Below, piece by piece: positions 10,618-48,857 of a stretch of DNA of 64,000 nucleotides. A program made the position numbers and the translations under genes. The notes under the pieces were generated by a model. The model worked only from the letters and a program-made list of their open reading frames with translations. It was not told the origin of the DNA and did no database searches. The DNA comes from Sarea resinae (Eukaryota): NCBI GenBank assembly GCA_026026165.1, contig JAPEUD010000001.1, forward strand, positions 124,001 to 188,000, given 5' to 3'. Every line of letters starts with the position of its first letter. The stretch's first letter is position 1.

Positions 10618-11809
10618 TTTGGCGTTCTAGCAATATTCGAGGTTTTTTGGCAGCATAGAGGCGCGTTCTGCTCCATTTCGTATCATCATTTTCCTTCTTC
10701 GACCTATCTCCCTTAGCAGCAACATAGTACAAAACTGGATACACTCTCATCGGTGTCATCGGAAAATTTCTATTACCCTCCTAACATCACTTTGCTAACT
10801 GGCATCGTGCTTGACTTCTCTTCGATCAGCTTCGCTTCTGCAAATTCCTCACCTGAGATTTTCTCAAGTGATACTCACCTGCTGTTCTCTCATCTACAAG
10901 CTAACCACCTCCTGGTCGGCCGTTCAACAAGTTTTCGCCTCACTCCTGTCACCTCCCCATTGTGGACTTGCTCGACAGATGAGATTGTCCATCACGCTCA
11001 TGCCAACAGTCAGCTTCCTGAAGGAAAACATTTGCTGCCTCTAGACTTCCAAGACCACAACTTCCACTTGAGGCACTTTACCCCCAGTCACCAATCCTTT
11101 CCTTGAGGCTCACTGTCAACTTCACTTCTTCGGCAGTTCTCAGTCCATCTACTCTCTAATTATCATATCCAACAAACCTTGAGCCAGCCGTCAAATCAAA
11201 TCGAGTCATCACTTAGGAGGTCAAGACCTCAGCATCAGAGGAGGAAGTAGTCATTGCTGGTGGAAAGTAAACCGTATGCTTGTTCCTGATTTTACTTGGC
11301 ATCTTCTCTCGTTTCTATCAACTCAACAGATCCGATCTTCCTGCTTGATCTGGCTAACGTTCAGTCAATGGTACCTCAAGCAACTCTTGACCAATATTCA
11401 CAGGATCGTGACTTGGCGTCCCCGTTTCAACCGTTAATTCGCTTGATTCACACAATTACGATCTATCAGGTATCCTTCGATCAGCAGTAGACGGCTGTTT
11501 TTGGCATCACTCTTCGATACCGAGATTTGTGGACTTTATCAGCCCAGGCATCAAACACCCTTCGATCTCTATCACATTTCATCACTTTCTTGTCGTTTTG
11601 GCGCCGAGATAGTTCTCTCTCTCGATGGGCCTTTGCGAAATCGTCTCTTTCATCGACAAAGGCGTGCTTGCATAGTACGCAACTGATCTGAAGATTCTCT
11701 CTGGTTCTCATCTACTGATAATTGCACTGATACCTTCAGAAGGTAAGGTCCATTCCATTTTCTTACCTTGGTGCGTAGATGCTGATATGCTGTCAGCCAA
11801 TTCACCAGC

Positions 11810-13690
11810 ATGGACTCTGCCCCTCATTCATCTAGCCCCCATGTAGCGAAAAAATCAATGCTGACTGATTGGGCGGATTGGCCTCTTTGGGAAGAAGAGA
11901 TCGCAATCTCAAAATCGCACCCCCCTCCTCCTAACGTTCGTCTGAGTGACTACAACGTTGCTCGCGTCATTGAATCAGACATAACGGTCAAATATCGCAG
12001 TCATTGCTGGTCGGCCGATTTCACCAAGAGTGGCAATATTCGTGCTACCCGTATTTCTCAAGGGAAGCCGGCAAAGGTCTGGGTGCCTTCTAAAAACGTC
12101 TCTACCGGTGGGAAGTGGCACTATAAAGTGTTCAAGCATTACTACGTACTTCACGGGAACGAAGGAGAAGGCCGTCCTTGTCTAGGAGACCCCATCGCCG
12201 GAGGAACGACACCGTTCATCTCTTACTCTTCCAACATTGCTGTTGTTCAAGAGCCACCGCCAGCGAATCTGCCACCCACGACTCCGACGCACAATAAACG
12301 AGCCAGGGCACCATCCGAAAAAAGCTTCAAAGCACCGGTTGTCCCGAACATGGAACGCAGCCTTTTTCTGGAGGACGAGCACGCCGGACTAGATATAGGC
12401 CGCCGACAGGTGGACACCTTTCCAAATCAGCCGGTCAATCCCTCGGGACATCAGAGCTACGAAACACAGAGCAATAAACGCTCCTTTCCATCTGACCAGG
12501 TCGAAGGTAATAGGCAAGTGATGCGCCGAAAGGTCGATGCCTCGGCAAACAGACAGATCCCAAATTTTGGTGTCCAGAATCGTACAACTATCGACGATTC
12601 TATGGGCGCTCCGTCTGGTTTCGGACAAAATACTCCTCACATTGACAAAGATTCTTCCCAAGGCATTAGACCAGCGGAATCGGTAGCTCCGAAGCAGGGT
12701 GGCGAGGGAATACGTCCTGCTCAACCCTTTCTCTCCGATTGGGCAGCTCGCCGCCTCGCTGGATATGGTACTCATTACGCTCTCCCTCCTCAACGTCCAA
12801 GAGAGCCGTCTGATTCCGCGCGCGCCAACAAGATTCGAGATGCTGCTTTGGAATCGTTCAAGGACGTTTTTGAAGCGGAGGGGGATCTAGCAAGTCGTCT
12901 GGAGCAGTTGGAAAATGGTATCGAGGGCGTTAGCAGCGCGCTCGGTCAGATCGGCGCTCACTTGGATGAGATGAAGAAGTATGCGAGAGAGACCAGAGCG
13001 GTCATTGGTCAGAGGATGTTGCTGGTGCCGGATGGATTTATCAATGGCCTATACGATAGCGGATTGCGGGGTGATGCTGGTCAAGCCAAGGAGACGCTGC
13101 AGCGCTGGGAGCCCGCGAGTGAGAAGACCATGGTAAACGAGGTGACTGCGGATGGTGATAGGGATGGTGGTGTTAGGAAAAGCTTGTCAGCAGGCAATCC
13201 AGGAAATGCTTTGAACAAAGGCTCGGGGTCTGTGCCTTATAACCGGAACTGGGATCTTAGTAACGGTGGGCACTCGGTCAATCAAATGAACTTCGCCACG
13301 GAAGACTGGGACCCTGCGCATGGGAACGGCAACTTGAATATGGCACCTGGCGGGCGAATGGACTATCCGGGGACTCCTCTTTTCAGCAGCCTTCAACCGG
13401 CGCCTGACAACCAAACCTCGGATGTGCAGCATGGCCAGCGCTTAGGGAACCACGAGAATCCAGCGATAGACTACGAGGCCCTTGCAGGTACGCACGAGGT
13501 CCGGAGCAACGAAGACTGGCATCCCATCAGCGAAGGTGGCAAGGACCCTACAAGTATGCATCAGGGCCACAGCAATGGAGAGGGGCATCCTATCAGCGAA
13601 GACGACGAGGTGTTAGGTATGAGCGCCGAGGAATTGCGGCATCTGCTGTTGGGCGAAGAGGTTGAGGGGACGCAGGTGAATGGTGACTAG
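11810..13690 (+). CDS. Hypothetical 626-aa protein, mostly disordered with a short coiled coil
   Basis: Long uninterrupted ATG-initiated ORF; likely 5'UTR intron at 11743-11796; no recognisable domain. Confidence 0.65.
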   Translation: MDSAPHSSSPHVAKKSMLTDWADWPLWEEEIAISKSHPPPPNVRLSDYNVARVIESDITVKYRSHCWSADFTKSGNIRATRISQGKPAKVWVPSKNVSTGGKWHYKVFKHYYVLHGNEGEGRPCLGDPIAGGTTPFISYSSNIAVVQEPPPANLPPTTPTHNKRARAPSEKSFKAPVVPNMERSLFLEDEHAGLDIGRRQVDTFPNQPVNPSGHQSYETQSNKRSFPSDQVEGNRQVMRRKVDASANRQIPNFGVQNRTTIDDSMGAPSGFGQNTPHIDKDSSQGIRPAESVAPKQGGEGIRPAQPFLSDWAARRLAGYGTHYALPPQRPREPSDSARANKIRDAALESFKDVFEAEGDLASRLEQLENGIEGVSSALGQIGAHLDEMKKYARETRAVIGQRMLLVPDGFINGLYDSGLRGDAGQAKETLQRWEPASEKTMVNEVTADGDRDGGVRKSLSAGNPGNALNKGSGSVPYNRNWDLSNGGHSVNQMNFATEDWDPAHGNGNLNMAPGGRMDYPGTPLFSSLQPAPDNQTSDVQHGQRLGNHENPAIDYEALAGTHEVRSNEDWHPISEGGKDPTSMHQGHSNGEGHPISEDDEVLGMSAEELRHLLLGEEVEGTQVNGD

Positions 13691-15453: not shown

Positions 15454-18400
15454 GTGGAAGGTACGCTGCCTGCCCCCAACTGGCCGTGGCCCCAAGCTGA
15501 TCTTCATGTGACGATAGCCCAAAGCAACGTCGCGCCGTCGTGGTCTCAGTCTGCATCTCCTCCTTCGACTCCATTGCGCGAGGAAGAGCTTGGAGGCTTA
15601 AGCCGAAAGCCAGGAAAGGCCCGGGAGGTCGACGACTCCCCGACTGCCACCTTTCGAACCTCTCCACTCACAAAAGAAAGCTCCGGACGTATTTCACCTG
15701 GGCTGCCGCCGCTCCCGACGCTTCCAACCTTTGGTCACGGTGTTGAAATACCTTCGTCGCCACCAGACGACCAGCAGACCGATAGTACACATTATTACAC
15801 AGCCAGTTGGGGATCACCTTATCAGCGTCCGGCCCCTGGAACATCTACAGGCGCAAGTTTCCACCGCCATCGGACACTCGACGGTGAGTCTGGGGACGAA
15901 TCTCCATTCCTCAGTGTCCGGACCGATAATTCTCGCCATTCGGGATTGTCTTCTATTGACGCTCCAACGCCAACGAGGAGAGAGCGTCATCCTTCATCAG
16001 GTTTACCGCCATCCCTAGCAGCGGCTCTTTCGGGAAGCCTCGGTAAAGACTCCATTCGCGGTTTCACCGAAGATTGGATCCGACAATATCTTTCAGGCGA
16101 CCTCGATTCGGAGCGGAGGAATTGGTGGAGCGACGACTCAAGCAGCGAGACGATTTCATTGGGGGAAGGATCCGGCGGATCTGCCGACGAGACAGGAAAC
16201 GGGTGGCTGACAATAGACGGAGAAGACGGCAAGGAAGGATCTTCGCCATCGAGCCTGACGGATTTTGTAAAACGACGGGAAAGTGGACGGAAGAGGGCTA
16301 CCAAGGAAGGCGAGAGCACGAGGAGACACAGATCGAGGACGAGCAACGCGACTTTGAAGCCGGAAGATTTTCTGGATATCTTAGACCCATCGCGAAACAG
16401 CTCGACATTGACAGACAACATGTTAGCATCAAAGTACGCCGACCCTCCTTCCCTGCCCAAGGAGCAAGTAGAGGGTCCCCAGCGGCCAGCGCCGGCAGTT
16501 CAGCCAGCTACAAAGTCGCCGAATCCTACACCGGTTGCGGACAAGCCTCTACCGCCTCCTCCGCCGTCTGAGAGCCCGATTCCCATCATACGCGTGCCGG
16601 AGTCTACTTCGCCTGGAACAGAGACCCCCTCGTCCACCCCTAAGCCAAGCTCATCGCCAGTCTCAGCAGGGCATCTAGCGAGGAAGAAACTCACCTGGCG
16701 AGGAAGGGCCTGCGTCGTTGCTCTACCCATCGACATCCCGCGGGGACCGGGAACCTCCAGACCGCTGCCATTGACTCGATCCGAGGTTGATGCCCGATTG
16801 AAACAGTGGATGGCGGATGGCTATGATGTCGAAGGGTTTGGCCTCTCGAGAAAGTCCAAGAGCACAGAAGATGTAGCGAATGATGGGCAAAGCCGGCAGC
16901 TGTATCCCGACCCATCGGAAAGCAGAGCAGAGTGGGAAAGGGGTAGCTACCGGGTCAGCATTCCCGATCGAAGAGGTAAGAAGACTTTCGTACATGAGAT
17001 GCATTTTTCCGTTTCTGTGCTCACCACAAACTAGACTGGGAGGCCTATGTGAATCATCTGCAAGAAGAGAAACTCCGAGCCTTAGGGGTCAGCTTCGGTG
17101 ACGAAGAGGTTGCACCAACAGTCTCTCCGGCGCCTTCTTCGATGGGCCGTCAAGCTTCTTCACAATACCAGCCGCTGCCCTTTGCTTCTCCTCCACCTAC
17201 TTCATCCGCTGCAAGTAACCACAATATGCAGCTTGCGAATCCTTTCTCGCCTCCGTTTGTACCTGGAGCCTCTACGAATCCGAGCTCTCAGGTGGCCTCT
17301 ATCGCATCCCCAGCATCTTCACATGCGCAACCGCAAGGAGGCTTTCATGCGCCCAAGCAGTCCATCTCGTTTCCTAACGGCGAGCAGGCTTTTGCTTCAC
17401 CGTTCCAGTTTCCTCAGTCACAGCCGACTCCGCCAGTACAGGGTATGTGGTCACCACCTGGATACTTCAATCAGCATGTCGGCGCAAGAGGAGGATCACC
17501 AGCAATCTTGGGGAGTCTTGGAGCTGCCTTGTCGCCTGGTTCTCCGTTCAATCAGGACATGTCACAGCCCGACCTGCTCACTCACATGCGCCAACAACAG
17601 CAGCAGCTGCAGAACCAACTGCTCCTGCAGCAACAGCAACAGCAACAGATACTCAACGCTCAGCATTCTCCACACCTAGAAGAGCTCCAGGAGACCGAGG
17701 AGGAAGAAGCAAGTCCTAGTCCCGTTGAGGATCCGGCGCCCGACCAGCAACCAGAGTCTCAAGCCCAAGGTTCGACCGAGAAGTTTCAGCGCCACATTAG
17801 CGACGCTGAATATCATTTGGAAGAATCTATCGAGCGACAAATGGATGAGGACGATGAGAGGCTTGACACCAACCAGACCTCAACTTTCGATGCGTCCAAA
17901 TTTGGCCAATACGACGATGGCCCAGGAAATGATTCCTCCAAAGAACATCGAGGCCATCCAAGCATCGGCAGAAATGCAGAGCGACCGACGTACGAGGGCC
18001 TAGGCGACGAGTGGCCGAAAGACGAAGCACCAGCGTTTGCTCAAGAAGCTCCGGATAGATCAACAGAGCCGACACTGCATCATCCGCAACCCCACAATCG
18101 AGCCCATTCTCTGTCCAAGCAACGATACGACGGAGATACCATGTCAACTTCCGCCATGGCCATGCTCAATGCAGAGACGCCTTATGGCAACGGCTCAAGG
18201 CACATGCATGACGACCTCAGCGAAGGGGCCCGGACAAACCTTTCGGACACTGACACAAATCCTAGTGTGTCCGGAACTCCTGCTCGAATGTTCGAGAATG
18301 CCCACGGGCAAAATATGTCCATATCGGCAAATCCATGGCTAGATTCCAAGTCCACGCCCATAGATGGCAAGGCAAGGCCGTCTTTTCACCAGACTCCATC

Positions 18401-21400
18401 TGGTCACGGCTCAAGCGGCTCGGTGCCAAAGTTCAACGTTGAGGCCAAGGAATTCAAGTTCAATCCGGCGAGCTCGTTCACTCCAGGAAACTTTTCGTTT
18501 TCTGGAAACAACTTCCAACCAGCACAACCGGCCCACCCTGCTTTCACACCGCCTCATCACTCTACCACGGGCAGCCGTATCAGTAATGGTTCATTTGGGG
18601 GGATGAGCAGCTTCAATGTGGGCGCTCCTGCCTTCAAACCCGGTGCTGCCTTTCCGACTGGCGATTTCAGCTTCTCTTCATCCGGTCCAGCGTTCAAGCC
18701 AACTGCTCCTGGATTCTCGCCTTTGATAGGTGCGGCTACAGACCTGGGCAGTAGTATCGGTAGTCGCGCCGTAGACGCTCCGACTCCAGCAAGGAGAGAT
18801 CGTATATTCAGCCCTATGAACCTGGTCGATATTGTCAAGCCAACGAAAAAGTCCAAAGCCATTCCAATTGTCAGGCCTGACGAGATTCCTGGCGACGGTG
18901 GCTCAGGTGATGGTGAACTGGATGCCGATGGCCGTCTCACTCAGACTGACGCCCGGCTGAAGAGAGTTCGACATCAAGGTGGCGATGGGGATGAAGTTCC
19001 GCAATTTGCTGACGACTTTACGACGCAATTTGCCATTCCTACTCATCCACTCACCGAGACTGGACAATCTCAATCAGGCAACAAGGAGCCGCAAAGGTTT
19101 TCAAATTCATCTCTCGGCAAGGAAAATGCTGTCCCTCATGACCAAAGCGAGGGCATCGCTTCAGAGAGTGATGCAGTGCAACCTAAAGGGCAAGAAAGGT
19201 TCGCCATCAATGAGGCATCCGACAACGTCATCAAGGCAATAGAGGTGAAACCCTCTGCCCAAGCTTCGCCAAAAGCTCAATCGGAAGCAGAAGCGAGCCG
19301 CGATACCGATTCTGCGGCCTCTGTTCATGAGAATGATACCACCGCTAACAAGAAGCATCGTATGGCGGATTCACATTCGGAGACTCACAAGCAGAGCAAG
19401 AACAGTTCTTTGTCCGCCATGGCAAAACCGTTCGAGTTCAAGCACTCGGAACCAGCTTTCGACCCCACTTTCTCCAAGAAACCTTCTCCAGTTCCCAAAA
19501 CAAAGGGCTTGGACGGATCTCGGTTTGCTCATAGTCCTTCTCCTCCACCGCTACCCGGACAGACCTCATCGACCACTCTTCGGCCAAGCGAAGTCGGCTC
19601 CTTCCGAGACGATGTCTTTGAGCCGACCAAGGATGCGCCGCCTCTCGACAGCGAAGGGATCGACTATAGTTCCTTGATTCAGCCCTCTTATGATGAGATT
19701 GATGCGGTCATGAGACATCTCAATCAGGATGATTCTGACCTTGGCGTCGAGCGAAATGGTAGTCCATGGAGACGGTCAAGCCCCGTTCAAGCGCAGCTCC
19801 CGACCCTTGAGCGGCCCACATCAGCTCAGCAGCTTCCACTCGATCTCCACCCTCGCAGCGATGCTCCCAGCCCAAGCCCCGGTCGCTTCCAGCAGCAGTA
19901 TCAGTATCTTCCTAAGGAGTCTCGCGCTCTGGGCTCTCCCGCACCCGTCATCCGTCCACCAGGCTTCAAGCGTACCGGTATAGCCTATGATTCACCCATC
20001 CATAGACTGAACAGCCCCGGCGATGTTCCTGCGAGCGACTGGGATGACATGATTTCATCCGGCGAAGAAGCAAAATTACCGACGCGCAGCAAATTCTTCG
20101 ACAATCGTGTCGACAACATTGTTGACGGTCTTCTGCGACAACGTCTAGGTCCTTTGGAAGAGACTCTGAACGTCATCCAGAATTCTTTGACGAATCTGTC
20201 CGCGCGTCCCTTTAGTAGAAGGGATAGGAGAAGCGTATCTGCCGAGGTCGCCAACAGCGATGCTGATGATGAAGATGATATGGAAGAAGGCATCCCGCCC
20301 CGGTCTATATCTCCCAGGAAAGACCGGAAGATGGAGAAGATCAAAGCCGCCGTATACGAGGCGATGTCAGTCGTTCAGGCTGATAGGAATAATGTGGCCT
20401 CCCCAGTCGTGTGGTCCGACGTTCAACAAACTCTCCTGGAGATCAAATCATCTTTCGTTCAAGCAGCTCGCCCGGAGACTCAGATTGACGACATCAAGAC
20501 GGTCGTACAGGAAGCGATATCTCAGCAGATGCTTGCTCTTGAAAAGCCAAAGAAGAACATGACCCCAGAGGTCGAGCTCCGGCTTGCGGCTTTGGAGAGC
20601 ATGCTGAAAGAAGCGGACCTTCGTGCCGGAGAAGAGCTCATGGCCCGCAGAGCAGCCGAGGACAGGGCTGCTGAGACTCAGCGAAGACTTCAGATTGCCG
20701 AAGAGGAGGCATTTCGGCAGCGTGATCTTGCCGAAGAAAGTCAGCGAAAGCTTCGCGTCCTCGACGACAAGCGCCACCAAAGCCTCATGCAGACTCAGAT
20801 GCGGACGGCGTTGCTCGAAGGTGCTCAAGAGAGTCTACAGAAGTCAGTCTCGGATTTGAATGCCAAGAATGACGCTCTCGAGGAGACCATTGATGAGTAT
20901 CGGCTTTCAAGCGACAGGTGGCGGAGAGAGGTTGATGAAAAGAAGGAGGAGAATGGCTCTCTCAAGAGAACTATCGGTGCATTGAAAAGTCAGATGGAGG
21001 AAAGTATCAGAGTCCGGGAAAATATGCGCGGGAAATTTGACAGGTTACAGGAGGACATGGCTACGGCCACGCGCGATATTGCACGAGAGCAAGCCACCTG
21101 GCGCAAAAAGGACGAAGAGCACAAGGCAAAGCTGGAAATGACGCTTGCGAGACTTGAAGCCGAGGCCAGGACCCGAGAACGACTCGAGAGGGAACTCGAG
21201 AGACTCGAGAACCAAGAGCGGGAGGCCATGAAGATGAGAGTCGTCGTCGAGCAAACTCAGAACGCGAATTCCCGGCTGGAAGAAATGGTCAACAAGTTGC
21301 GAATGGAAAGTCTGGAGCATCAGAAGACCGCGGCGAGGTTCGAACGTGAGTTTGGCGAGGCTAGGGAAGCGGGACGAATGGAAATCCGGCGCACCAGGGT

Positions 21401-22832
21401 CCTCATGGAAGCCGATATCGAAGCGGCAAACAATCAAGTCAATATAGTTCGTGCCGATCTGGAGAGTGAGCTTGCACGGACGAGAAATGAGCTGGAGAAT
21501 GTGAAGCTGGATGCAGACACGGCCAAGGAAAAGAGCGAGCTCGAACTCGAGGAGGCAGCGGAGTCGAAGAAGGCTGCTTTGCGAGAGGCTTCCGAGTCGA
21601 AGAGGGTTGCTTTGCGAGAGGCATCCGAAGCTCGAGATGCAGCGGTGAAGGAGCAACACCGGAAGTATGAGCGTTATCTCGAAGAAATGAGGGCACAGCA
21701 TGATCGGGCTTTGCGCAATGCATTAGAAGACAAGCAGCGGGCAGAGACGCATCTTCTTGAACGGCTCAGTCTATCCGACGCCAAAGCCGAACATCTTCAA
21801 GATCGTGTTGCCCACTTGGCAGAAAAGCTCGAGATTGCAAAGTCTGCTGCACATGCTGCAGCGCAAGCTGCTCAGTCCGCACGGGTTGTATCCACGGCTT
21901 CGCCGTCCGTAGGGAGCTTGACTGCAGAGAGACGCTCTGACGAACCCGAGAGAATCTCGCCGCAAGCGCTTCGCGAGTCAATCATGGTGTTGCAAGAACA
22001 GTTGCAAGAGCGTGAAGGACGAATCGAGAAGCTCGAACAAGAGCTGTCAAACGCTGATACGGAGGCGCCGTCAAAGATCAAAGAGCGAGACAGCGAGATT
22101 GGCTGGCTTCGCGAGTTGCTCGGCGTGAGAATCGGTGATCTCGAAGATATCATCAAGACCCTATCTCAACCTAAATACGACCGAGATGCTGTCAAGGACG
22201 CTGCCATTAGGCTCAAAGCGAACTTGCAAATGGAGCAGCAGGAGAGAGAACGAGCAATGTCGGGATCGCAAGGATTCCCGTCACTCGGCAATCTAGCTAA
22301 TCTTGCCTCGCCCAAAGCGGTCTTGCCTCTGGCAGCAGCTTGGGGAAATTGGCGAAGAGGAAGGGACCGGTCTTTTGGCAACACATCTGACGCTGCTGCG
22401 AACAGCCCGACACCTTCCAAGCCCTCTCCATCAGCTCAGAGTTTCCTATCTGGTCTGATGACCCCGCCAAGCACCCATGTCCGGCAAACACCACAGGCTC
22501 CTAATACTGAGACTTTTACGGCGCGTCGGTCCGCGCCGGCTCCATTGGAGCTGACCAAGTCGAATTCGCAACCGTCACTATCGTCCCGGCAGAAGGAGAA
22601 GCAGCGCGCCCCATCTCCTCCTGCGCCTTCGACGCCTCCATTGCTCCGCAAGGGGTCTTATGACCAGGACGCCGAAGACAACTTCAGCACGAGTGGGTTC
22701 TACGACGATGATGACAGCACCGCCGACGGGCACGGCCACGGTATCGGAGAGGGCAATGAATTCAGTACCGAGAGCGACAGCCACGATCTTCATGCCGAAG
22801 CCGGCGACGAACTCTTCGCCCCGCTCGTCTAG
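15454..22832 (+). CDS. Large (~2,400 aa) conserved fungal coiled-coil protein (often auto-annotated 'myosin class II heavy chain-like'); start codon uncertain
   Basis: ORFs 15454-17034 and 17049-22832 are joined in frame by a phase-1 intron at 16976-17034 (G|GTAAG...CTAG|AC). PAM2-like FNVEAKEFKF/LSAMAKPFEF motifs; long heptad region from ~20.5 to 22.2 kb. First in-frame ATG only at 16420. Confidence 0.85.
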
Positions 22833-36102: not shown

Positions 36103-38178
36103 CTAGCTTGTATAGCTATCCTTCGTAATGCCTATCTGGAGATTCGTGTGGAGGTACCTCCGAGGCGTGACCTTGGTCAGCCTGGGGTCCACACCCTCCA
36201 ACAAGTCCACGAGGCTGTTTGCCTTCATGGCGAACTTATCCCCTTTGGAAGAAGGGAAAAGAACTTCGGCATGACCGTCCTTGTTCAAGACTCGCACTTG
36301 AACGGACAGCTTTAGTGCAGGATCACCCGGAAGTGCTTCTGCTGCGAGTCTCTCTTCGGGCGGGGTGTCATCACGAAGAAGACACGTCGCCCAGACTTTG
36401 TCGGCCGCAGTGAGACCGAGACGCTTCACGTCTGCGCTGCGGATGCTAACGTCCAGCTTGTTCAGTGAGAACATGAGACGGAATAGCCCGGCCTTACACA
36501 GCTTGAATTCCCCCCCATTAAGGAATTTGTGTTTTGCCGTCTTTCGCTTCGACTCGTGCGACTTCTGCATCGCATTTCGCCTCTTCCCGATGTAGTATGC
36601 ATATACCACGGGATCCTCAGAGGCAGCCAAGAGATTGAATGATCTCTGCGCCGTGGCGTTACCCCCCTGAACGTATTGGATCAGAGGCGGCGCAATATTC
36701 AGGTGCGCGCCTGGGTAAGGTACTGCCGTATTTTCCGGCAGGTGCGGTTGCAGCAGAGACTCCGGGAGAGTCTGAAAAAGCAAACAACCCCACATCTCCA
36801 TCAGATTGAGAAACATCTGATAGCCCTGGATGCCCTTTGTCTTGGCCGGAGTTGCGGCAGGCAAGAATGGTTCGGGGTAGGTATCCTCATCATCCGAGGA
36901 TACCAGAATGGCATCATCTGGGCCGAATCCAGTAGCATTACTGCCACTGGCTGAACCCGGTTCTGCCAGCACCTCGCGAGAGTCCGAAGACTCAGGTTTA
37001 GCACTGATATCGTCCACGGCTCCCCGAAGGGAAACCGGTGGGTTTTCCAAGGGTCCCCAAAGGGGGACCGCTGGATCGTTCAAGGATCCCCGAAGGGAAT
37101 CCTCAAACGCCGAGTCGTCTTTCATGGCATTGCTGCCTTTGGACGAGTCGGTGGCCGCATCACGGGAACCCGAAGATTCCCCTTCAGCAGTAGATTCATT
37201 CAAGGATCCCCGAAGGGAATCCTCAAACGCCGAGTCGTCTTTCATGGCATTGCTGCCTTTGGACGAGTCGGTGGCCGCATCACGGGAACCCGAAGATTCC
37301 CCTTCAGCACGGTCCGTATTTGAGAAGACGAAAGATTCGTCTCCTGTGAGGGTGCAAAGCATTGCGTATGTGCTTTGCTTACCCATTCGCTCATAAGCGA
37401 AGTAGTGGAGGCTACTCTTGTTGCGGCGGAATTCTGCATCCATATGGTTACCCATACGAGCAGCGATGTCCGAAGCCTGGCCAACGTAGAGGTAGTAGGC
37501 TCCGACTTTATCCTTGTTAGGGATAACGTCCATGTACACACCGGGACCAGTGTGCGTGAAGTCACCTCCAAGGGCCTGGAGGTCCTGGAGGTTGAGGTAT
37601 CGTCCGTCCAAGAACAAGTCGTTGACGGAGGGCGAGAGGGCGTTCAGCATACATCCGCGGACGTAGCTGGGGTCATTCTGTCTCAAGAATGATTCGTAGA
37701 CATCTGGGACGGAGCCCAGAAGGGAATCGAGACAGGTTTGGGGATCGACCGATCGAGCGGACGACGTATCGAACACGCCTGCTTGTGCAGGAGTCTCGGG
37801 TTGTTTCGCAGTCTGCTTCTTTGAGTCAGCCTGCTGGATCACCTCTACTTGTTTGCCTTTGGAGACACTCAATGTATTTGGGCTAAGTTCCGGTTTGCCT
37901 GAGGACGGAGCCTCTTCTTCTTCTTCTTCTTCGTCGGCGGCTTCGTCCGAGGACTCTGCCTTTGCTGCCGGTCGCCTGGTCCGCTTGCGCGGTGGCTGTT
38001 CATTGTCTTCGCTGTCCTCGGCGACGGTGGCTGGGCCAGAGGACATTACCGCTTTTGCCGGCTGCTTCCTAGTGGAAGGAGAATTAGCATCTTTTTTAAC
38101 GACCTTCTTTTTGGTCGGCTTGGCTGTGTTCGGGTTCCCCGAAAACATCTCCCAACCGGCACCAAGTCTGCCGCTCAT
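36103..38178 (-). CDS. 691-aa protein with a GIY-YIG-like endonuclease domain
   Basis: Intronless ORF; GVYMD-x11-YLYVGQASDIAARMGNH matches the GIY-YIG two-strand motif plus catalytic Arg; later LNLMEMW (Glu) and HLNIA (Asn); basic NLS-like PPRKRTRR at the N-terminus. Confidence 0.7.
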   Translation of the reverse strand: MSGRLGAGWEMFSGNPNTAKPTKKKVVKKDANSPSTRKQPAKAVMSSGPATVAEDSEDNEQPPRKRTRRPAAKAESSDEAADEEEEEEEAPSSGKPELSPNTLSVSKGKQVEVIQQADSKKQTAKQPETPAQAGVFDTSSARSVDPQTCLDSLLGSVPDVYESFLRQNDPSYVRGCMLNALSPSVNDLFLDGRYLNLQDLQALGGDFTHTGPGVYMDVIPNKDKVGAYYLYVGQASDIAARMGNHMDAEFRRNKSSLHYFAYERMGKQSTYAMLCTLTGDESFVFSNTDRAEGESSGSRDAATDSSKGSNAMKDDSAFEDSLRGSLNESTAEGESSGSRDAATDSSKGSNAMKDDSAFEDSLRGSLNDPAVPLWGPLENPPVSLRGAVDDISAKPESSDSREVLAEPGSASGSNATGFGPDDAILVSSDDEDTYPEPFLPAATPAKTKGIQGYQMFLNLMEMWGCLLFQTLPESLLQPHLPENTAVPYPGAHLNIAPPLIQYVQGGNATAQRSFNLLAASEDPVVYAYYIGKRRNAMQKSHESKRKTAKHKFLNGGEFKLCKAGLFRLMFSLNKLDVSIRSADVKRLGLTAADKVWATCLLRDDTPPEERLAAEALPGDPALKLSVQVRVLNKDGHAEVLFPSSKGDKFAMKANSLVDLLEGVDPRLTKVTPRRYLHTNLQIGITKDSYTS
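37079..37309. repeat. Identical 111-bp direct duplication (period 120 bp), in frame inside the GIY-YIG ORF
   Basis: 37079-37189 equals 37199-37309; gives the repeated peptide AEGESSGSRDAATDSSKGSNAMKDDSAFEDSLRGSLN. Confidence 0.97.
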
Positions 38179-39327
38179 CTTGGACGATGAGTTGGGGGGA
38201 TGTGCTTTGTAAAACGAAAAAACAATTCGATCGTCAACTGTTCGAAAAAAAAAGTTGGTGGTGGAGCTGTGATGAAGACAGATGACGAGAAGAAAAAGAA
38301 GAAGAGTCGAAAAGGTGGGCGGGAAATGGCATTATATAGATGTCTCTTCCTCCTCGGCGCCTTCCTGGCATGAGGCCCCTCCCCTGGTTGAAGATGGGAG
38401 ATCTTTCCAAAGGCACCTGCATCCATTGAACGAATCCATGTCCCACCGCGTACACTGTCTCTCCACGCCTGCCCGGAGTCCAATATTCCCCTAACGTAGG
38501 CAATGTTGGCCGGCTCAGATGTGCCTGCATCCCACCGTAAGAGCAACATCGTTCGACTCCAATGACTCGAATTGATGACGTGACAATGAAACAAATGACG
38601 ACAAGGCAAATCAAAGCTTGTAACGAAATGGAGACGCCTTCTCTTGATCCGTTTTTGATGCAACGGAAACTGGAGATAGGTCAAGAGCACCTGGCTTGTA
38701 GGAAGCACCGACTGCACTGGTTGACACTCTGAAATTTTCTCAGCCGGACTGAGCGATTGCGGCTACCTTATAGGAGGTAGCAATTCACAAGAAGGAGCAA
38801 TATCGTGTGAGGCACGCTGTTCTATGTTTAGTTGGCAAACAAGCAAAGAACGATAGTCGTTTGGCTCACATGGGAACTGCTTTGCCTCTTATCAGGACCT
38901 TACATATCGTCAACCTGTATTTCGCTCGGGTCAGGAGCAAAGCATGAGTGTCTATTCGTCCAGGCGATCACTCCTTCCTTTATACTAGAAGAATGTGGGC
39001 AATGAATCCACACGAAATGCAGACTCGGCGGTACACGCCCGGACGGGTGTCACGAACTGTTTTAGGATCAATGACTGCAGACTCGACATCTGATAACGGA
39101 TATAAGATCGAGCCAAGCCTGGCACGTGATCGGTGTCCCATCGCTGACTCGTTTTGATCTAGATGTTGAGAACTAGGTTGAATGCCATAGTCTGCCATAC
39201 CTTACATGATTGTCAAGACGCTGCGTAAGGAAAGAAGAACGTAAAGCCAGAGAGAAAGAGAGTCGAGAGTTGCGCCGAAACTAACAATAAGCAGCTGCAC
39301 AATTTTCATGTCGCACCCGGCCTTGAG

Positions 39328-40134: not shown

Positions 40135-42830
40135 TTTCGTTCGGCTGCATATTGTAGCCATCACCAGAAGGGAAGGGGGGATGTGTGCGGCGTGAGGAAG
40201 AGAGGGGGGCTTCCGTTGCCAGCTGCCCTCCTGGCAACGTCCTCCGTGCCACTTGTGACAATTTTCACACTTAACACGATGCCAGAATCCCCCAAAAGTT
40301 CTTCATCTCGTCGTCGTCATCGTCACAGACGTTGCAGTCCTAGCCAAGGTCTCGTGGAGAGACAGTTGGAGATGGGAGAGGCAGCTTGTGAACTCGTCGA
40401 TTGCCAGCACTTCCCCCGCATGCCATTCCTTGCAAATCTCGCACTTCACACGCTTCTGTAGTAAGTGTTAGCAAGCGTCCATCTAGAGCTAAAGCCAAAG
40501 TTCTGTCCCAGGGTCATTGAGACAAGGATGATGCCCAAGGCTTGCAATCAGGAAAGCTGACAGCGAGGAATTCAGGCTAGTGTGCATTCTATTACTTACA
40601 TTTGTGAAATTGTACGTTTTTGTCGTGACTGACGTTGCGGTTGCCAGTAATGAAGGGCGCAGGTGAGGGTTATGAGATAACGCTTGGTTTGCCGGCGGCC
40701 CCGGCAACTTCCCGCATGCCACTTGTGACAGTTTTCACACTTAACCCGATGCCGGAATCCACCAAAAGTTTTTCCATCTCGTCGTGGCGGTGGTGAGTAC
40801 AGAACAGGAGTCTTTATCTAACCTTCCATGGTACCGTCTTTTGCCGGAGATCCCCTCGGAGTCTTCTCAGGCTTCTCTCTAATACTGCACCCAGTGTCTT
40901 TCTCGCCGGACTCACTGGAGTCCCTTTGTTGTCGGACTCTCCCGAGTTGGTTTTGTTTTCAGCCGATGCCGGTTCTTTGCCTGCTGCCCTCTTATTGGTT
41001 TTCTTCCCAACCTCGACTGGCTGCGCCTCGTCATTGCTAGTACCTTCCCCGTCCGCCTCCTCTTCCCTCTCGGGCTCTCTCTTTTCCTTTCCCCTTCTTC
41101 TTGTTCTTTTAGAGCCAGCCATCAGGAAACATGATGACAAGGAATTCAGACTAGAGTGAATTCTACTATTCACATCCCCAAAGACGTAGGTTGTAGCCGA
41201 TGTGGCTCTTGCGAGCAAGGACGGAGGGATTTGGCCGGCTGCCGTTGCCGGTTGTAGTCTCCTGCACTCGCCTTTCCCGTGCCATTTGTGACACCTCCCA
41301 CATTTGCTACGTTCCTGTATTAAGTGTTAGCAAGCGTTCATCTAAAGCTAAAGCGAAAGGACCGTCAGACGGTCATTAAGAAATATCGTTCGATGCCCGG
41401 GGCTTGCAATAAGGAAAGCTGACAACGAACGATTCAGGCTAAATGCTATTACTCACAATTTCTAAATGATATGTGCTGGTAGTGGTCATGGTCGCAACGG
41501 ACGTTGCGGCCGCCATGAGGGAGGTGGAGAAGTGTGGGTGGTTGGAGAGCGCTCGGTTTGCGGGCGCCGGGGAGGGGGAGGAAGACGCCGGCAACATCCT
41601 CCATGCCACTTGTGGCAGTTTTCAGATGCCGGAATCCCCCAAAAGTTCTTCATCTCTACACTGCCACCATCGCGGAGGACTCTTTCCCCATGGCCTTGAG
41701 CTCTTGATCACGAGCATCGTCGCTGGAATCCCAATGACTATAGCCGCTATGGCCTCGATCATGGCTGCCATGCCCTTCAGCTTTTGATCACGAGCATCGT
41801 TGCTGGAATCCCCCAACAGTTTCTAGTCTCTATACGGCCACCACCGCCAAGGACTTTTGCCGCGCTGCTGGAATCCCTGTCGCTAATCCGAACCCGAAAA
41901 GGTAGTAAACAGAAAGCACTGTGATAGAGGTCAGTGCAATTATCGACTGAGCCGGCAGTCCATGGAGCCAGCAATCTTGAGAGCCGATAACAAGGGATCC
42001 CAAGCTAGAGTGAAATCTACTACTCACATTCTTGAAGACATGGGGCTAGTGGTAGTTTTAGTTGTGACCGAAGTTGGCCTGGCCGCGAAGTGGTGCTGGA
42101 GAGCGAGGTGAGCTCTGGGGGGAGGTGTGTCCGGTGGTGGGGAAGAGCAAGCATGGCTTGTGCTGTGTGTGGGAGTGCGGCGAAGAGACATGGGAGGGTG
42201 TTGCGTTGAAGAGAGTGAGAAAGGGCTGAGGTGGTCGTGCCTCACGACTTCGAAGACGTCGCGCGGAGAGATAGGTTCGCGGCAGTTGAAGCAGCGAGGG
42301 GCGGCGTCTGGATGTTTTTTCTGCTGATGTTCGATATACTCCAACAGACATTTCTTGCAAGCGCTATGCCAACATCCTGTGACGGTCTGCTCGATCATGG
42401 GCTCTTCGGCACATATGGAGATCGTTGGAGCCGGGTTATAGTAGTCTTTTTGGATGGCTCACGTAGGAACAGGTTTGCCTATTTACTGGTCCTTACATCT
42501 ATTGCTAGCCTAAAATTCTTGGTCAGTCTTCAATCTATGATAATTGCAGAACGGTATGCCAGACAAAACACAATGAATTACACGAACGAGTTTTCAGGCT
42601 GGAGTGGATTCTATTACTCACAATTTGAAAGGAGTATGTGCTGGTGATAGTCGTGAGTGAGGTGCGGGCACTGTGAGTGGTGGTGGTGGTGGTGGTGAAT
42701 GGAGAGATCAGAGTGGTGGTGAAGGAAGTGGAGGTGGGAGAGAATGGGACACGGCTTGCGTTCCCGGTCCCCCACGGCATCTGCCCTCATCGTTCCATTT
42801 GCGGCAGCCCTTCTATCTGGACGGAGTCAA
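40135..42830 (-). pseudogene. Array of about 7 degenerate copies of the zinc-knuckle exon and its introns (paralogues of the gene at 45016-46390)
   Basis: Minus-strand KCENCHKWHGGRC (~40270), KCEICKEWHAG (~40445), KCENCHKWHAGSC (~40740), KCGRCHKWHGKGEC (41314-41174), ENCHKWHGGC (~41620), GCRKWNDEGRC (~42810). Most are followed by SLLA-ATS-T-rich tails, and several by a GTRAGT-AATAGAAT donor. Confidence 0.8.
42234..42416 (-). pseudogene. RAD5: Captured RAD5 RING-finger fragment
   Basis: ICAEEPMIEQTVTGCWHSACKKCLLEYIEHQ..PRCFNCREPISPRDVFEVVRHD matches the recalled filamentous-fungal Rad5 C3HC4 RING. The first Cys and both helicase halves are absent. Confidence 0.75.
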
Positions 42831-43538
42831 CAGACGACATTTTCATGCTTGGGGAAGCTGAACCTTCCGAATCGAGAAAATCTCACCTGACCGAGACCTG
42901 TTACGGGACTCTGGCGGGATAAATCCGTGATGAGAAAAGAATTTTGCACCTTCGCGGATGATGTGATTGTCAAAATCCCGCTGGGCTAAACCTCGGAATT
43001 TGAGAAGTAAGTTGGACTTGTTACCATATATGATAAACAAGAGGTTGCGTGAGGAAAAGAAGAAGCAAGAAAAAGGTTCGTTCTAGTAGATATTTATATC
43101 CACATGACCTCGCTAGAAGATCACGCACCAGGAAGTCATAGAACCTATGAGTAGCACATGCTTCAATGCAAAGCGAATCTGTTGCCGTAGCAAGAAGGTA
43201 TCAAGTGCTTACCACGGGGAAACAGCGAAGTCGCTCAACACCGAGGGAGGGCTATTGCCACAACCGTATAGTCTATATGCCTATCGATGACTGCATTTCC
43301 ACCTATTGAGCCGTGAAAAAAGTAGACCTAACTTTGCAATGGTAAATGTCCTGTTGAGGTTAGCAAGTGGCCAATCTCCAGGAGACCCCTCGAGTAGCTC
43401 TGTAAGCTCAATGTAATGTGTATACACATCCTGTAAAAAGATATCAAGAGGGAAGTTCTGGATGTCGCCACAACTGGCCAACAAAATTAAGCAGCAGAAA
43501 AACTAAATGAGGATGGCAAGAGAGATTGGCAAAAGAGA

Positions 43539-43657
43539 TAGTCATGCTGGGGATCGAACCCAGGCCTCTGTGATGCCCAATCACCGCAACCGTTCGGGGA
43601 ACTGTTGGGGGATTCCGGCAATTAAGGCACAGCGCTCTACCACTGAGCTACATGACC
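43539..43657 (-). tRNA. Intron-containing tRNA gene, apparent anticodon TTA (ochre-suppressor-like/undetermined), copy 1
   Basis: GGTCATG-TA-GCTC-AGTGGTA-GAGC-G-CTGTG-CC-TTA-A-[48-nt intron 43621-43574]-T-CACAG-AGGC-CTGGG-TTCGATC-CCCAG-CATGACT-A. All four stems pair, A and B boxes are intact, and a T-run follows. Confidence 0.8.
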
Positions 43658-43748
43658 GAGTTGATATACACATCTCTCGACAGACAGAATTATGAGCATT
43701 CTCCGTGAGGGCTGGGTGCAAAATATCAATGAAAATGGCAAAAAGTAA

Positions 43749-43867
43749 TAGTCATGCTGGGGATCGAACCCAGGCCTCTGTGATGCCCAATCACCGCAAC
43801 CGTTCGGGGAACTGTTGGGGGATTCCGGCAATTAAGGCACAGCGCTCTACCACTGAGCTACACGACC
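43749..43867 (-). tRNA. Intron-containing tRNA gene, apparent anticodon TTA, copy 2 (210-bp tandem duplication)
   Basis: Identical to copy 1, intron included, except A5 to G (gives a G-U pair). The flanks are more diverged than the gene. TTTTT terminator downstream. Confidence 0.8.
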
Positions 43868-44613
43868 GATTTGATATACACACCTCTCGACGAAAAGTAT
43901 CATGACCATTTCGGTGAGGGTTGGAATCCAGTCTCTAAGTTTGTTATCTCGATAAAGCGGCGACATTTGTAAAAGGGAGCAACAGTAGACGGCCTCAGCA
44001 GCTGGCGGAATCTGGATGCCTGGCCTTACTATCTGTCTACAAGGCAAATTCGGCACTTCAAAGATAATTCGATCTTCGATCACCAAGAAGAGAGTATGCT
44101 AGGTATAAGAAGATTCAAAACGCATATAATGATCAGCTCGACCAATTGAGAACGAAGGATTGTAAGCTCCTAGCACCTGGGAGCATGTATAGCAAGGTAA
44201 TCCATATGGTGGCGGCGCTCGAGGAGGGAGGAAAAGAATCGCAGACCTTAGGAGGTAGTTTGTGAGATTACACGCTAAAAAGTGGACGGAAGAACTTCAA
44301 CATCTTGGTGATTTTTAGCTGTTACCCTATGTTGACAATCGGCCATGTTGCTATCCTACTAAGCAGCTAGCATGGGATGGAAATAAGGCAATAGAAAACG
44401 CATATTCATCTAGCGAGACTATGAAGACGGGACCCAGTAATCCATTTTCTCCAATCAAGGCTTCAAGAGATTCAAATCCCCAAATTATTCACATTGCTGA
44501 AGTTGGCGTAGTCACGTGGTCGGACCGGATCGACCCGTTCGACGTAGCATTGGAAATGCGCTCGAGACCGCAATATCGTATTGCTCACTTCACCTCATGA
44601 AAATCGATCTCTC

Positions 44614-45015: not shown

Positions 45016-46390
45016 CTAATCCTCCATCGCGATGTCCTTTGCCGGGGAAACGCCCCTCTCGGCCCCCTTCTCGGAGGCTTTGCCGTCCTCGCCGGCATTG
45101 CCGGTGTTCCCATTCTTCTCTCGGAGTACCACTTCTTTGCCGGTCACCCCCATTTTCTCTACTGCCTTCTGGGCAGACTTCCCTCCTTCATTGGCCGGAG
45201 TCCTTTTCTTATTGGACTTCCCCGCCCCACTGCCTGACGTCCTTTTCTTGCCGGGGACGCCCCTTTCAATAGCTGGAGTCGTTTTCTTGCCGGACCCCAA
45301 CGGAATTGCCACTTTTTCGGCCGATGAGGCCTCCTTACCGGCGTCCCCCTCCTGACCCTCCTTCTCAATCTCTGCCTCGTCGTTGCCGGAACCCCCCTCC
45401 GCGTCATCTTCCCCTTCAGTTTCGCGCTCTTTCTTTCCCCCCCCCCTCTTGCCGGCTCCCCCCTTTTTGCCGGCTCCCCCCTTTTTGCCGGCTCCCCCAC
45501 TTTTCTGGTAAGGGTGGAACCTGTTGCCGGGCTACATTTATCTGTCAGTCTTCATTTCTAAGCAAAGCTGAACGGCCTTCCAAAAAAAGATGGAAAATCA
45601 ATGAAGAACGGCCGAGAAAACAGAGCGACGTGGGAGAGGTCACAATCAATTGAGCCGGTAGTGCATAGAGCCAGCAATAGGGAAAGCTGAACGGCATGCC
45701 AAAAAAAAGATGGAAAATCAATGAAGAACGAGCGAGAAAACAGAGCAACGTGGTAGAGGCAATGATCAACCGAGCCGGCAGTGCCAAGAGCCAGCAATCG
45801 GGAAAGCTGAACGGCGTGCCAAAAAAAAAACAAGATGGAAAATCCATGAAGAACGAGCGAAAAACAGAGCAACGTGGTAGAGGCAATGATCAACTGAGCC
45901 GGCAGTACATAGAGCCAGCAATCGGGAAAGCTGAACGGCATGCCAAACAAGAACGAAAAGCCAATGTAGAACGAGCGAGGAACAGAGAGCAATGTGGTGG
46001 AGGCAATCATCAACCCAGCCGGCAGTCCACGGGGCCAGCAATCAGGAAAGCTGACAACGAGGAATTCAGACTAGTAATTCTATTACTCACATTGGAGAAA
46101 GTGTAGTGTATGGCGGACGTTGCTCTGGCCATGAGAGAGGCAGGGATGCTTCCGGCGTGAGCGGCTCCCGTTGCCGGTGGTCCCCCACACTCGCCCTTGC
46201 CGTGCCAACGGTGGCATCGTCCACATTTGGCACGTCTCTAATAGTAAGTATCAGCAAGCGATCATCTAGAGCTAAAGCCGAAGGAATGGTTCGGGGTCGT
46301 TGAGATGTAAGACAACTTGTAACGGCAACGAGTGATGGCTTTGGAAAGCCAGGCCTTGGGTCATGAATCACTTACCTTTTGTCTTGGCAT
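45016..46390 (-). CDS. Intact 3-exon, 225-aa CCHC zinc-knuckle protein with PY-NLS and a Lys/Gly/Glu-rich tail
   Basis: Exons 46390-46376 (MPRQK), 46237-46091 (RRAKCGRCHRWHGKGEC...HYTFSN) and 45531-45016 (PGNRFHPYQKSGGAGKK...SPAKDIAMED*). All junctions phase 0; donors GTAAGT/GTGAGT; branch sites GCTGAT/ACTGAC; TAG acceptors. A further intron at 46462-46391 ends directly before the ATG. Confidence 0.75.
45565..46052. repeat. About 4 tandem copies of a ~120-bp unit inside intron 2 of the zinc-knuckle gene
   Basis: aagctgaacggc...gagccggcagt...gagccagcaatcggga recurs at ~45565, 45684, 45805 and 45928. Confidence 0.93.
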
Positions 46391-46466
46391 CTAAAGACGA
46401 TGAGCAAGGTCAGTTGACTCTACTGATATAGAGTGCTTTGCGATGGATGGGCAGCCACTTACTCTC

Positions 46467-46635
46467 GATGATGATGATGACGGTGATGATGGTGGTGGTG
46501 ATGATGGTGGTGGTGATGATGGTGGTGGTGATGATGGTGGTGGTGATGATGGTGGTGGTGATGATGGTGGTGGTGATGATGGTGGTGGTGATGATGGTGG
46601 TGGTGATGATGGTGATGGTGATGGTGGTGATGGTG
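46467..46635. repeat. (GGTGGTGGTGATGAT)n minisatellite in the presumed 5' leader of the zinc-knuckle gene
   Basis: Seen directly; 15-bp period. Confidence 0.95.
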
Positions 46636-47800
46636 TGTACGAAAGAGGTTGAAAGGAAAAGAAGGAAAACAAACGGACGACGCAGTATTTAAGGTGGCCT
46701 CACAAGCCTCGGTCCTACCAGTTCAGATGTCTTACGTTCCTCTCCCTCATGGCTGACTTCCTACAGTATATTGGAAGCGCTTGTCCTCCACATCGCCCCG
46801 TACCTGCCTCCTATATTGCGTCCGAACCTGAAATGGGCAGAGGAGCATACATATCTTACCATTCTCGAAGGAGCCACCTAGGGGTCTAGATCGTTACATA
46901 CGAGGAGATCGAGTACCCCCGTCCATCTGCTCATAGACCTACCTGCCTCCTGTTCGTCTTCCTGCCTTGAGCTTCTTCCTTACTTGCCCCTGTTTGTCTT
47001 CCTACTATAAGCTCCTTCTTACATACCGCCTCTCCCTTCTAGACTCGACACCGACGTCGTCATATTGACCGTCAACGCGCCTGCTTGCAATGCTCAACCT
47101 ACTGACCCGAATACGCTCAAGCTGTCAGAAGACACTGACTTCGAGCATGAGTCGTTATAGAGCCTCCTCTTGTATCCTCTCCCCCCCCCCTCCCTCCCCT
47201 CCCTCCCCGTACCATCATATAGACCGTCAATGCGCTTGCTTTCAACGCTCAACGGACTGACCCGAAAGCGCTTGAAGGTGTCAGGATAGCCTGATTTCAA
47301 TGAGTCAATCACACACACACCTCCCCCCTCTGACTATATACGGAAGGCCTGCTTACAGGCGCCTGCGTTTTATACTCCGTTTATTGCCGACAGCGTGTTG
47401 ATTCATCAATACCTACCCTTCGATATTCAGCCCGACGCCTCAAGGAATTCAGTATATCAGGACTACTCTAGTAGAATTCTAGACAGGCGTTCTATTGCTA
47501 CATTGCTTGCTAGATTGTTTCTAGCTAAGTTGGTTGCTAAGTCTGTCGTTCGAGTAAGCGGCGTAGGAGCCTGTTAGGACGCTGTCCAGTATACTACCAT
47601 CGAGCTATGAAAACATGCGCCTACTGCGTACAATTTGATCAGATAACGATTTGCGTACAACTCTTGTCGACAGAATACAAAAATACTGCCTCTGATAATC
47701 AAAATGATTTCTAATCACTAGGTGACTTAATTGGATGGGAAAAGTAAGAGAAAAAAATTAAGCGACAAAAAAATCGAAAAAAAGTTAAAAATAATAATTT

Positions 47801-47881
47801 CGATGTTGACAAGATTCGAACTTGCGTGACCTAAGTCATATGATTTCTAGTCATACGCGATAACCACTCCGCCACAACATC
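47801..47881 (-). tRNA. tRNA-Ser(AGA)
   Basis: GATGTTG-TG-GCG-GAGTGGTTAT-CGC-G-TATGA-CT-AGA-AA-TCATA-TGACTTAGGTCA-C-GCAAG-TTCGAAT-CTTGT-CAACATC-G; long variable arm, G73, downstream T-runs. Confidence 0.9.
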
Positions 47882-48776: not shown

Positions 48777-48857
48777 CGACAACTGAAGGACTCGAACCTT
48801 CGACCCAAAAGGGATATGATTTCTAGTCATACGCAATGACCACTCTGCCAAATTGTC
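48777..48857 (-). tRNA. tRNA-Ser(AGA), divergent second copy
   Basis: GACAATT-TG-GCA-GAGTGGTCAT-TGC-G-TATGA-CT-AGA-AA-TCATA-TCCCTTTTGGGT-C-GAAGG-TTCGAGT-CCTTC-AGTTGTC-G. Confidence 0.88.

Follow-up and report, generated by a model that had tools for sequence, protein, structure and literature searches.

A tandem pair of intron-containing tRNA genes with a predicted UUA anticodon in a Pezizomycotina fungus

In organisms that use the standard genetic code, tRNAs cognate to stop codons are often predicted, but their function is rarely demonstrated. In the 64,000-nucleotide stretch of DNA analyzed here (the window), two tandem tRNA genes with an apparent UUA anticodon raised the question of whether such genes can be structurally sound, whether UUA is the correct reading of their anticodon, and what a tRNA of this kind might do in a cell in which TAA serves as a stop codon. 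The pair had come to attention through a sequence-only reading of the window, and some of the claims of that reading were re-examined along with the structure of the genes, their conservation and their surroundings.

Both genes lie on the minus strand, 210 bp apart from each other (Table 1), and the coordinates and the strand previously assigned to them were right, as judged by the matches to the Rfam tRNA model RF00005. In a 10-kb search, this model matched both genes from end to end, with E-values of 5.9e-10 (copy A) and 3.1e-09 (copy B) and the bit scores given in Table 1, which have to be compared with the Rfam gathering score of 29 for tRNAs. When the whole window was searched with Rfam, four matches were obtained, all of them tRNAs, namely copies A and B, which both exceeded the gathering score, and two tRNA-Ser(AGA) genes. 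Each gene of the pair is made up of a 71-nt cloverleaf and a 48-nt intron. Read on the minus strand, the acceptor stem is GGTCATG/CATGACT with a G1.U72 pair and the discriminator A73, the D arm is GCTC-AGTGGTA-GAGC with a 7-nt D loop followed by G26, the anticodon stem is CTGTG/CACAG, the variable loop comprises four nucleotides (AGGC), and the T arm is CTGGG-TTCGATC-CCCAG. CCA is encoded by neither gene. According to the sequence and a constrained fold, all stem pairs (21/21) are standard or G.U pairs, and the conserved positions on which the tertiary structure of tRNAs depends (U8, A14, G15:C48, G18G19, G26.A44, U54-U55-C56 and A58) are in place. Because the model scores are far above the threshold, every stem pair is formed and the tertiary positions are intact, the tRNA can be regarded as well formed. 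The two genes are thus a real, structurally sound tRNA gene pair and the original observation is confirmed.

Table 1. Coordinates of the two tRNA genes, of their parts and of adjacent sequence signals in the window
Feature	Position	Strand	Basis
tRNA gene copy A, 119 nt	43539-43657	minus	Rfam RF00005 (55.2 bits), sequence, constrained fold
Copy A, 5' exon	43622-43657	minus	
Copy A, intron (48 nt)	43574-43621	minus	
Copy A, 3' exon	43539-43573	minus	
Copy A, anticodon T34-T35-A36	43623-43625	minus	frame set by the 5-bp stem CTGTG/CACAG
Copy A, loop position C32	43627	minus	
Copy A, loop position C33	43626	minus	
Copy A, loop position A37	43622	minus	
Copy A, A-box-like TAGCTCAGTGG	43640-43650	minus	sequence
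Copy A, B-box-like GGTTCGATCCC, T arm	43550-43560	minus	sequence
Conserved block TGTGTATATCAA, -15 to -4 of copy A	43661-43672	minus	alignment counts
TTTT run, likely Pol III terminator, 5 nt past copy A	43531-43534	minus	sequence
tRNA gene copy B, 119 nt	43749-43867	minus	Rfam RF00005 (52.6 bits), alignment
Copy B, 5' exon	43832-43867	minus	
Copy B, intron	43784-43831	minus	
Copy B, 3' exon	43749-43783	minus	
Copy B, anticodon T34-T35-A36	43833-43835	minus	same as copy A, offset 210
Copy B, A-box-like TAGCTCAGTGG	43850-43860	minus	sequence
Copy B, B-box-like GGTTCGATCCC, T arm	43760-43770	minus	sequence
Conserved block TGTGTATATCAA upstream of copy B	43871-43882	minus	alignment
TTTTT run, likely Pol III terminator, 5 nt past copy B	43740-43744	minus	sequence

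A tRNA-derived SINE or a decayed tRNA pseudogene was rejected as an identity for the two loci, as there are only two matches in the window and the stems are intact; a 20-nt probe covering the T arm and the acceptor stem, used with up to three mismatches, likewise found only the two genes within the window. ARAGORN run without intron search missed both genes, the two tRNA-Ser genes being its sole calls. In a DNA run, the contig piece covering the intron had a depth of 691 versus 301-407 for the flanking pieces, which hints weakly at about two copies in the genome. Aligned on positions 43300-44100, this run revealed no variants in the two genes, and two further runs from the study it belongs to yielded no alignment on this interval.

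The surroundings of the cloverleaves contain signals that may be relevant for transcription. Runs of T are established terminators of Pol III, and each gene is followed by such a run shortly behind its 3' end. Upstream of both genes, the block TGTGTATATCAA is conserved, and it may be a start-site or promoter element. Inside the genes, TAGCTCAGTGG resembles an A box and GGTTCGATCCC a B box.

The reading of the anticodon depends on the frame of the loop. That this frame is fixed by the stem CTGTG/CACAG had already been stated in the sequence-only reading, and this claim holds according to both the sequence and the Rfam alignment. If canonical splicing is assumed, the order of the loop is C32-C33-U34-U35-A36-A37, intron, U38, and the anticodon is UUA, which would be cognate to UAA and, via wobble, to UAG. 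It is highly improbable that the anticodon has been misread, be it that splicing takes place elsewhere, that U34 acts as the turn nucleotide of a shifted loop, which exposes U35-A36-A37 and thereby the sense anticodon UAA (Leu, codons UUA/UUG), or that the genes specify glycine. The last of these readings goes back to ARAGORN, which, when introns were allowed, modeled both as tRNA-Gly(CCC), placing a 26-nt intron at 30/31 and adding a long extra arm, while a shift of the register might be suspected from the fact that, given C33, the uridines available for a U-turn are limited to U34 and U35. However, the Rfam alignment sets CTGTG/CACAG as the anticodon stem and leaves a variable loop that is normal and short, and any 5' cut past position 36 keeps U34-U35-A36 in a 7-nt loop. 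Moreover, the tRNA body has no long variable arm and is hence not Leu-like. The Gly(CCC) model itself was rejected, as it requires a G.A mismatch in the anticodon stem and an intron outside the canonical site, results in a tRNA of 93 nt, and contradicts Rfam.

A UUA anticodon would be expected if UAA had been reassigned to an amino acid and the gene pair encoded the cognate tRNA, since the tRNA(UUA) of organisms with such a code (ciliates, Blastocrithidia) has the same anticodon; Tetrahymena is mentioned in this context in a survey (PMC9858662). Nothing more than the anticodon itself speaks for this possibility here. Among the proteins encoded in the window, Pfam identified a homogentisate 1,2-dioxygenase, an alpha-amylase and a Cupin_8 protein. 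A single ORF, uninterrupted under the standard code, contains both Pfam domains of the homogentisate dioxygenase in full, and the alpha-amylase and Cupin_8 domains are likewise contained in uninterrupted standard-code ORFs. While genomes with reassigned UAA carry this codon in frame throughout, none was found in the conserved genes of the window. The stop codons of 11 long ORFs are TAA in two, TAG in five and TGA in four cases, one of the TAA codons being situated 22 codons past the end of the Cupin_8 match. These counts are a weak check of the earlier statement that neighboring genes end in TAA; one of the two ORFs has Pfam coverage close to its end. On account of the uninterrupted domains and the TAA-terminated ORFs, we regard it as very unlikely that UAA has been reassigned, so much so that we give this reading almost no credence, and the earlier opinion that a code change is unlikely is upheld. 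The dioxygenase was also informative on the host. It is 86-87% identical to its best relatives; among the named hits, the proteins of Lignoscripta atroalba and Lasallia pustulata rank first with 85% identity, followed by those of Xylona heveae and Bogoriella with 83%. Judged by these sequence identities, the host belongs to the Pezizomycotina, with the lichen-forming Lecanoromycetes as its nearest group; the dioxygenase protein search gave no close sequenced relative in the database searched.

The intron is inserted between positions 37 and 38, the canonical place just one nucleotide behind the anticodon. It is 48 nt long and not as long as the '[52]' insert of the Rfam alignment, because four of those letters are loop positions. 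In the review by Phizicky and Hopper (PMC10275265), eukaryotic pre-tRNAs are described to possess an anticodon-intron pair between C32 or U32 and an antepenultimate intron A or G, an intron complementary to N33-N35 or N34-N36, and single-stranded cleavage sites. To describe the splice-site geometry, a fold was used in which the four cloverleaf stems were enforced. In this fold, C32 pairs with the antepenultimate G of the intron (...GGGCA/T, the slash marking the 3' splice site), as had been noticed beforehand, C32/C33 being opposite the GGG that ends at this base, and the 3' splice site is situated in an unpaired 3-nt bulge, C-A-U38, beside the anticodon stem. N33-N36 have complementary bases in the intron; C33-A37 together with the first six intron bases are paired with CGGUGAUUGGG in an 11-bp helix, and the inner hairpin GUUCCCCGAAC closes the intron. 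Thus, the extended helix and the inner hairpin proposed from the sequence are both recovered. The 5' splice site (A37/U) is predicted to be buried in the 11-bp helix instead of being exposed in a loop. Modeled in this way, the intron would fit the eukaryotic splice-site rules of the review, except for the position of the 5' site within the helix. As a suboptimal fold, the isolated anticodon-intron arm can adopt an alternative long hairpin, in which GUGCC is paired with GGCAU (-21.3 kcal/mol). The energy of the whole gene folded without constraints is unexceptional (z = -1.66; 13 of 200 shuffles fold equally well), so that it is the covariance model and the anatomy of the two genes, not their folding energy, that make the case for them. 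Compared to the Rfam families, the intron gave no match.

Against the ordinary body of the tRNA, the odd features are clustered in the anticodon loop and at the end of the acceptor stem, where G1.U72 is found. The modification i6A37 requires the sequence A36-A37-A38. Neither of the two loop features that support efficient decoding, U33 and A36-A37-A38, is present, as both copies have C33 instead of U33 and position 38 is U. In a tRNA that decodes, C33, the combination of C32 and U38, and G1.U72 would each be unusual. The C33 loop described in the sequence-only reading occurs in both copies, but C33 alone is no bar to decoding. According to a preprint, the tRNA-Leu(GAG) of S. cerevisiae naturally carries C33 with minor functional loss, while G33 in the tRNA-Ser(CAG) of Candida albicans reduces decoding efficiency (bioRxiv 10.64898/2026.02.20.707122). 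These fungal cytoplasmic tRNAs still decode and, like the pair, depart from the nearly universal U33; unlike the pair, they carry sense anticodons, and their identity is known.

Further evidence came from the comparison of the copies, which were aligned with MAFFT and whose differences were counted per region. Within the gene there is a single difference in 119 positions, A5 in copy A versus G5 in copy B, and since both nucleotides pair with U68, the pair 5-68 is kept. By contrast, 8 of 43 aligned columns differ upstream (2/18 from -18 to -1 and 6/25 beyond -18) and 17 of the first 35 columns downstream, so that near-identity begins at roughly -18 and ceases a few bases beyond the gene. The near-identity of the genes amid more divergent flanks, on which the sequence-only reading had relied, was therefore borne out. 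At the upstream rate, the probability of no more than one difference is 6.5e-10 for the whole gene (119 positions) and 7.7e-06 for the exons (71 positions), and that of no difference in the 48 positions of the intron alone is 5.1e-05. From the single difference in the gene as compared to the numbers in the flanks it follows that the duplication is not very recent and that the functional unit is still near-identical. The pattern points to purifying selection or gene conversion. Constraint, as it had been claimed, is supported by the conservation of the gene relative to its flanks but is unproven, because gene conversion gives the same pattern; across 210 bp, conversion could make the copies identical without selection on decoding.

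Predicted genes of this kind are not rare. In a tRNAscan-based survey, Sup(TTA) genes are reported for 21.65% of eukaryotic genomes (PMC9858662). For a planarian, 17 predicted SUP-TTA genes are described, with RNA visible on northern blots (PMC7962491), in zebrafish, Sup-TTA clusters with Lys-TTT (bioRxiv 10.1101/2024.01.30.575011), and for Metarhizium, another preprint mentions predicted UAG and UGA suppressors that vary between strains (bioRxiv 10.64898/2026.04.30.721964). The nuclear tRNA genes which tRNAscan-SE labels as 'possible suppressor' of the Sup-TTA type resemble the pair in their ordinary-looking body, their TTA anticodon and the use of TAA as a stop codon. What the pair adds is C33, a canonical 48-nt intron, the tandem duplication, and the signs of constraint or conversion. 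It is a fungal addition to the known but poorly understood group of predicted Sup-TTA genes.

On these grounds we tentatively prefer the reading that the pair encodes a maintained Sup-TTA-type variant of an ordinary class I tRNA, which is at most a weak reader of UAA, although our confidence in it stays below even. A nuclear tRNA gene of the Pol III type would have been duplicated in tandem in a Pezizomycotina fungus, and the tRNA splicing endonuclease should remove the 48-nt intron at 37/38. The spliced tRNA of 71 nt would then combine an intact elongator body with the loop C32-C33-U34-U35-A36-A37-U38. Its two gene copies would be kept alike by purifying selection, with or without gene conversion. 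If the tRNA is charged, for which Lys or Gln are the usual guesses in the case of an anticodon with U35, only weak reading of the stop codon would be expected, because C33 takes the place of the U-turn uridine and U38 leaves no site for i6A37. The model scores, the intact stems and tertiary positions, the splice-site features, the near-identity of the copies, and the T runs after and the conserved block before both genes count for this reading, as do the natural C33 decoder of yeast, the frequency of Sup-TTA genes and the planarian northern blots. The possible origin of the copies' identity in conversion, C33, the C32/U38 combination, G1.U72, the position of the 5' site in a helix and the unexceptional energy of the unconstrained fold count against it.

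Some of the same features might equally be found in a copy of an ordinary tRNA gene that is dead for decoding, i.e. one that suffered one or a few mutations in the loop, such as the loss or change of U33 together with a change of the anticodon, and was duplicated in tandem and homogenized by conversion without any selected role, although its RNA may still be made. This explanation is rather unlikely, and somewhat less likely than the preferred one. Three oddities, C33, U38 opposite C32, and a stop anticodon, come together in a single loop, and the intron, which is identical in the two copies (48/48), would fit conversion, of which such identity is typical, at least as well as selection. In addition, Sup-type predictions are common and usually taken as mutant standard tRNAs (PMC9858662, PMC7962491), and the clustering of the zebrafish genes with Lys-TTT points in the same direction. 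On the other hand, no decay is visible outside the loop, where all stem pairs and tertiary positions are intact. In a pseudogene, one would also not expect both copies to have retained the upstream block and clean terminators. The sharp limits of the near-identical block, with two differences in 18 nt upstream and one in the gene and an end just past it, would fit selection somewhat better than a random conversion tract.

A maintained variant need not act in translation. It is conceivable, but unlikely, that the pair yields a tRNA-shaped Pol III transcript with a non-decoding role, for example as a TFIIIC/Pol III chromatin element, as a source of a functional intron or of tRNA fragments, or as a decoy for enzymes that target anticodons. 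Freed tRNA introns of yeast have reportedly been found to regulate mRNAs. Such a role would agree with the fact that body, intron and promoter-like flank are conserved between the copies, with the alternative long hairpin of the anticodon-intron arm and with the gene-poor setting, which is shared with the two other tRNA genes. However, a chromatin or promoter function alone needs neither intact acceptor, anticodon and T stems nor a proper splice geometry, the intron has no Rfam counterpart, and neither a target nor a partner of the transcript is in view. At the opposite end of the range, the pair could represent a dedicated intron-bearing UUA tRNA which is under selection, charged, and deliberately weakened to act as a built-in read-through factor for UAA (and UAG). 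We attach little probability to this idea. C33, U38 and the absence of i6A37 would in that case be the weakening features. If it were true, TAA-terminated proteins would receive C-terminal extensions at a low level while the genetic code remains unchanged.

With its intact body, proper intron and signs of constraint, the fungal pair is a clean test case for programmed low-level read-through, and it is relevant to whether odd nucleotides in the loop, C33 for instance, serve to attenuate decoding. Should the genes prove silent or uncharged, they would be a further warning that the annotation 'Sup' is no evidence of suppression.

The ochre suppressor SUP4-o of S. cerevisiae is reportedly a tRNA-Tyr in which GUA was changed to UUA, with U33, A37-A38 and Tyr identity (C1-G72). 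It arose as a mutant allele in the laboratory and its family is known, whereas the pair is a wild-type sequence with C33, U38 and G1.U72. What the two have in common is an intron-containing nuclear gene that gives a UUA anticodon after splicing, as described for tRNA-Tyr SUP4oc in the review cited above (PMC10275265). A descent of the pair from tRNA-Ala was considered because of the likeness of the D arm and the intron-final GCAT before the stem. Positions 5-26, compared by eye, are equal, letter for letter, to the 5' fragment of human tRNA-Ala(CGC) as given in Table 1 of PMC6237853. This likeness is no evidence of descent, since the D arm is common to many families, and GGCAU at the end of the intron is no Ala signal either, as it is complementary to GUGCC, that is, to the 5' stem strand plus C32-C33. 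The defining G3:U70 pair of tRNA-Ala is absent, the pair having U3:A70, a 4-nt variable loop and another anticodon, and this ancestry was rejected.

In the literature searched, no report of a conserved fungal tRNA with a UUA anticodon was found, the one fungal report encountered being that on the UAG and UGA suppressors of Metarhizium, and supplementary tRNA tables may hold such cases. Metagenomes scanned with a pattern of the family (the 5' half, a gap of 30-60 nt and the start of the 3' half) gave 0 loci. A degenerate metagenome scan for C32-C33 tRNAs with this D arm returned at least 120 loci and at least 125 matches; CCTTAA is present in none among the matches listed (at least 125), a result that carries no inference on absence. 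Among these listed matches, 59 belong to one family resembling a tRNA-derived repeat, in which a T run comes after the loop letters CCGGTA and the tail is common to the members, many of those listed being on Ga01263xx and OMLO01 contigs. Other listed matches resemble bacterial tRNAs with C33 (loops CCGTTAA, CCGATAA and CCTGTAA). When prokaryote genomes were scanned for the D arm plus CCTTAA, two unrelated tRNA-like matches were obtained, one in an Isosphaeraceae MAG and one in Levilactobacillus spicheri, and no fungal DNA was among the results. Both genes have C32-C33 and a TTA anticodon and are called tRNA-Stop(tta) by ARAGORN.

The surroundings of the pair from 38.4 to 53 kb are gene-poor. 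A Pfam scan of this region, which covered 63 of 82 ORFs of at least 70 aa, the remainder overlapping others, revealed a PBP domain and, on the minus strand at 42027-42458, a RING finger; two further matches did not reach their cut-offs, and there were no transposon genes among the 63 ORFs. Between the pair and the tRNA-Ser genes, there is an 18-bp tandem repeat (45440-45504, 3.6 copies), followed by a 120-bp tandem repeat (45564-45998, 3.6 copies, 84% matches). A low-complexity ORF at 46391-46699 on the minus strand contains a long run of SPPPS repeats and has no Pfam match. Elsewhere in the window, three long ORFs are without a Pfam match at E <= 0.001, those at 16998-22832 (plus strand, 1944 aa), 11786-13690 (plus strand, 634 aa) and 36103-38331 (minus strand, 742 aa). 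The two tRNA-Ser(AGA) genes (47801-47881 and 48777-48857, minus strand) are about 1 kb apart. Their anticodon arms are identical, overall identity is about 72% (59 of 82 aligned columns), and the acceptor stems differ at several pairs, both being fully paired. With 44-45%, their G+C content is low for nuclear tRNAs, and it is unusual that adjacent copies of the same isoacceptor are as divergent as these.
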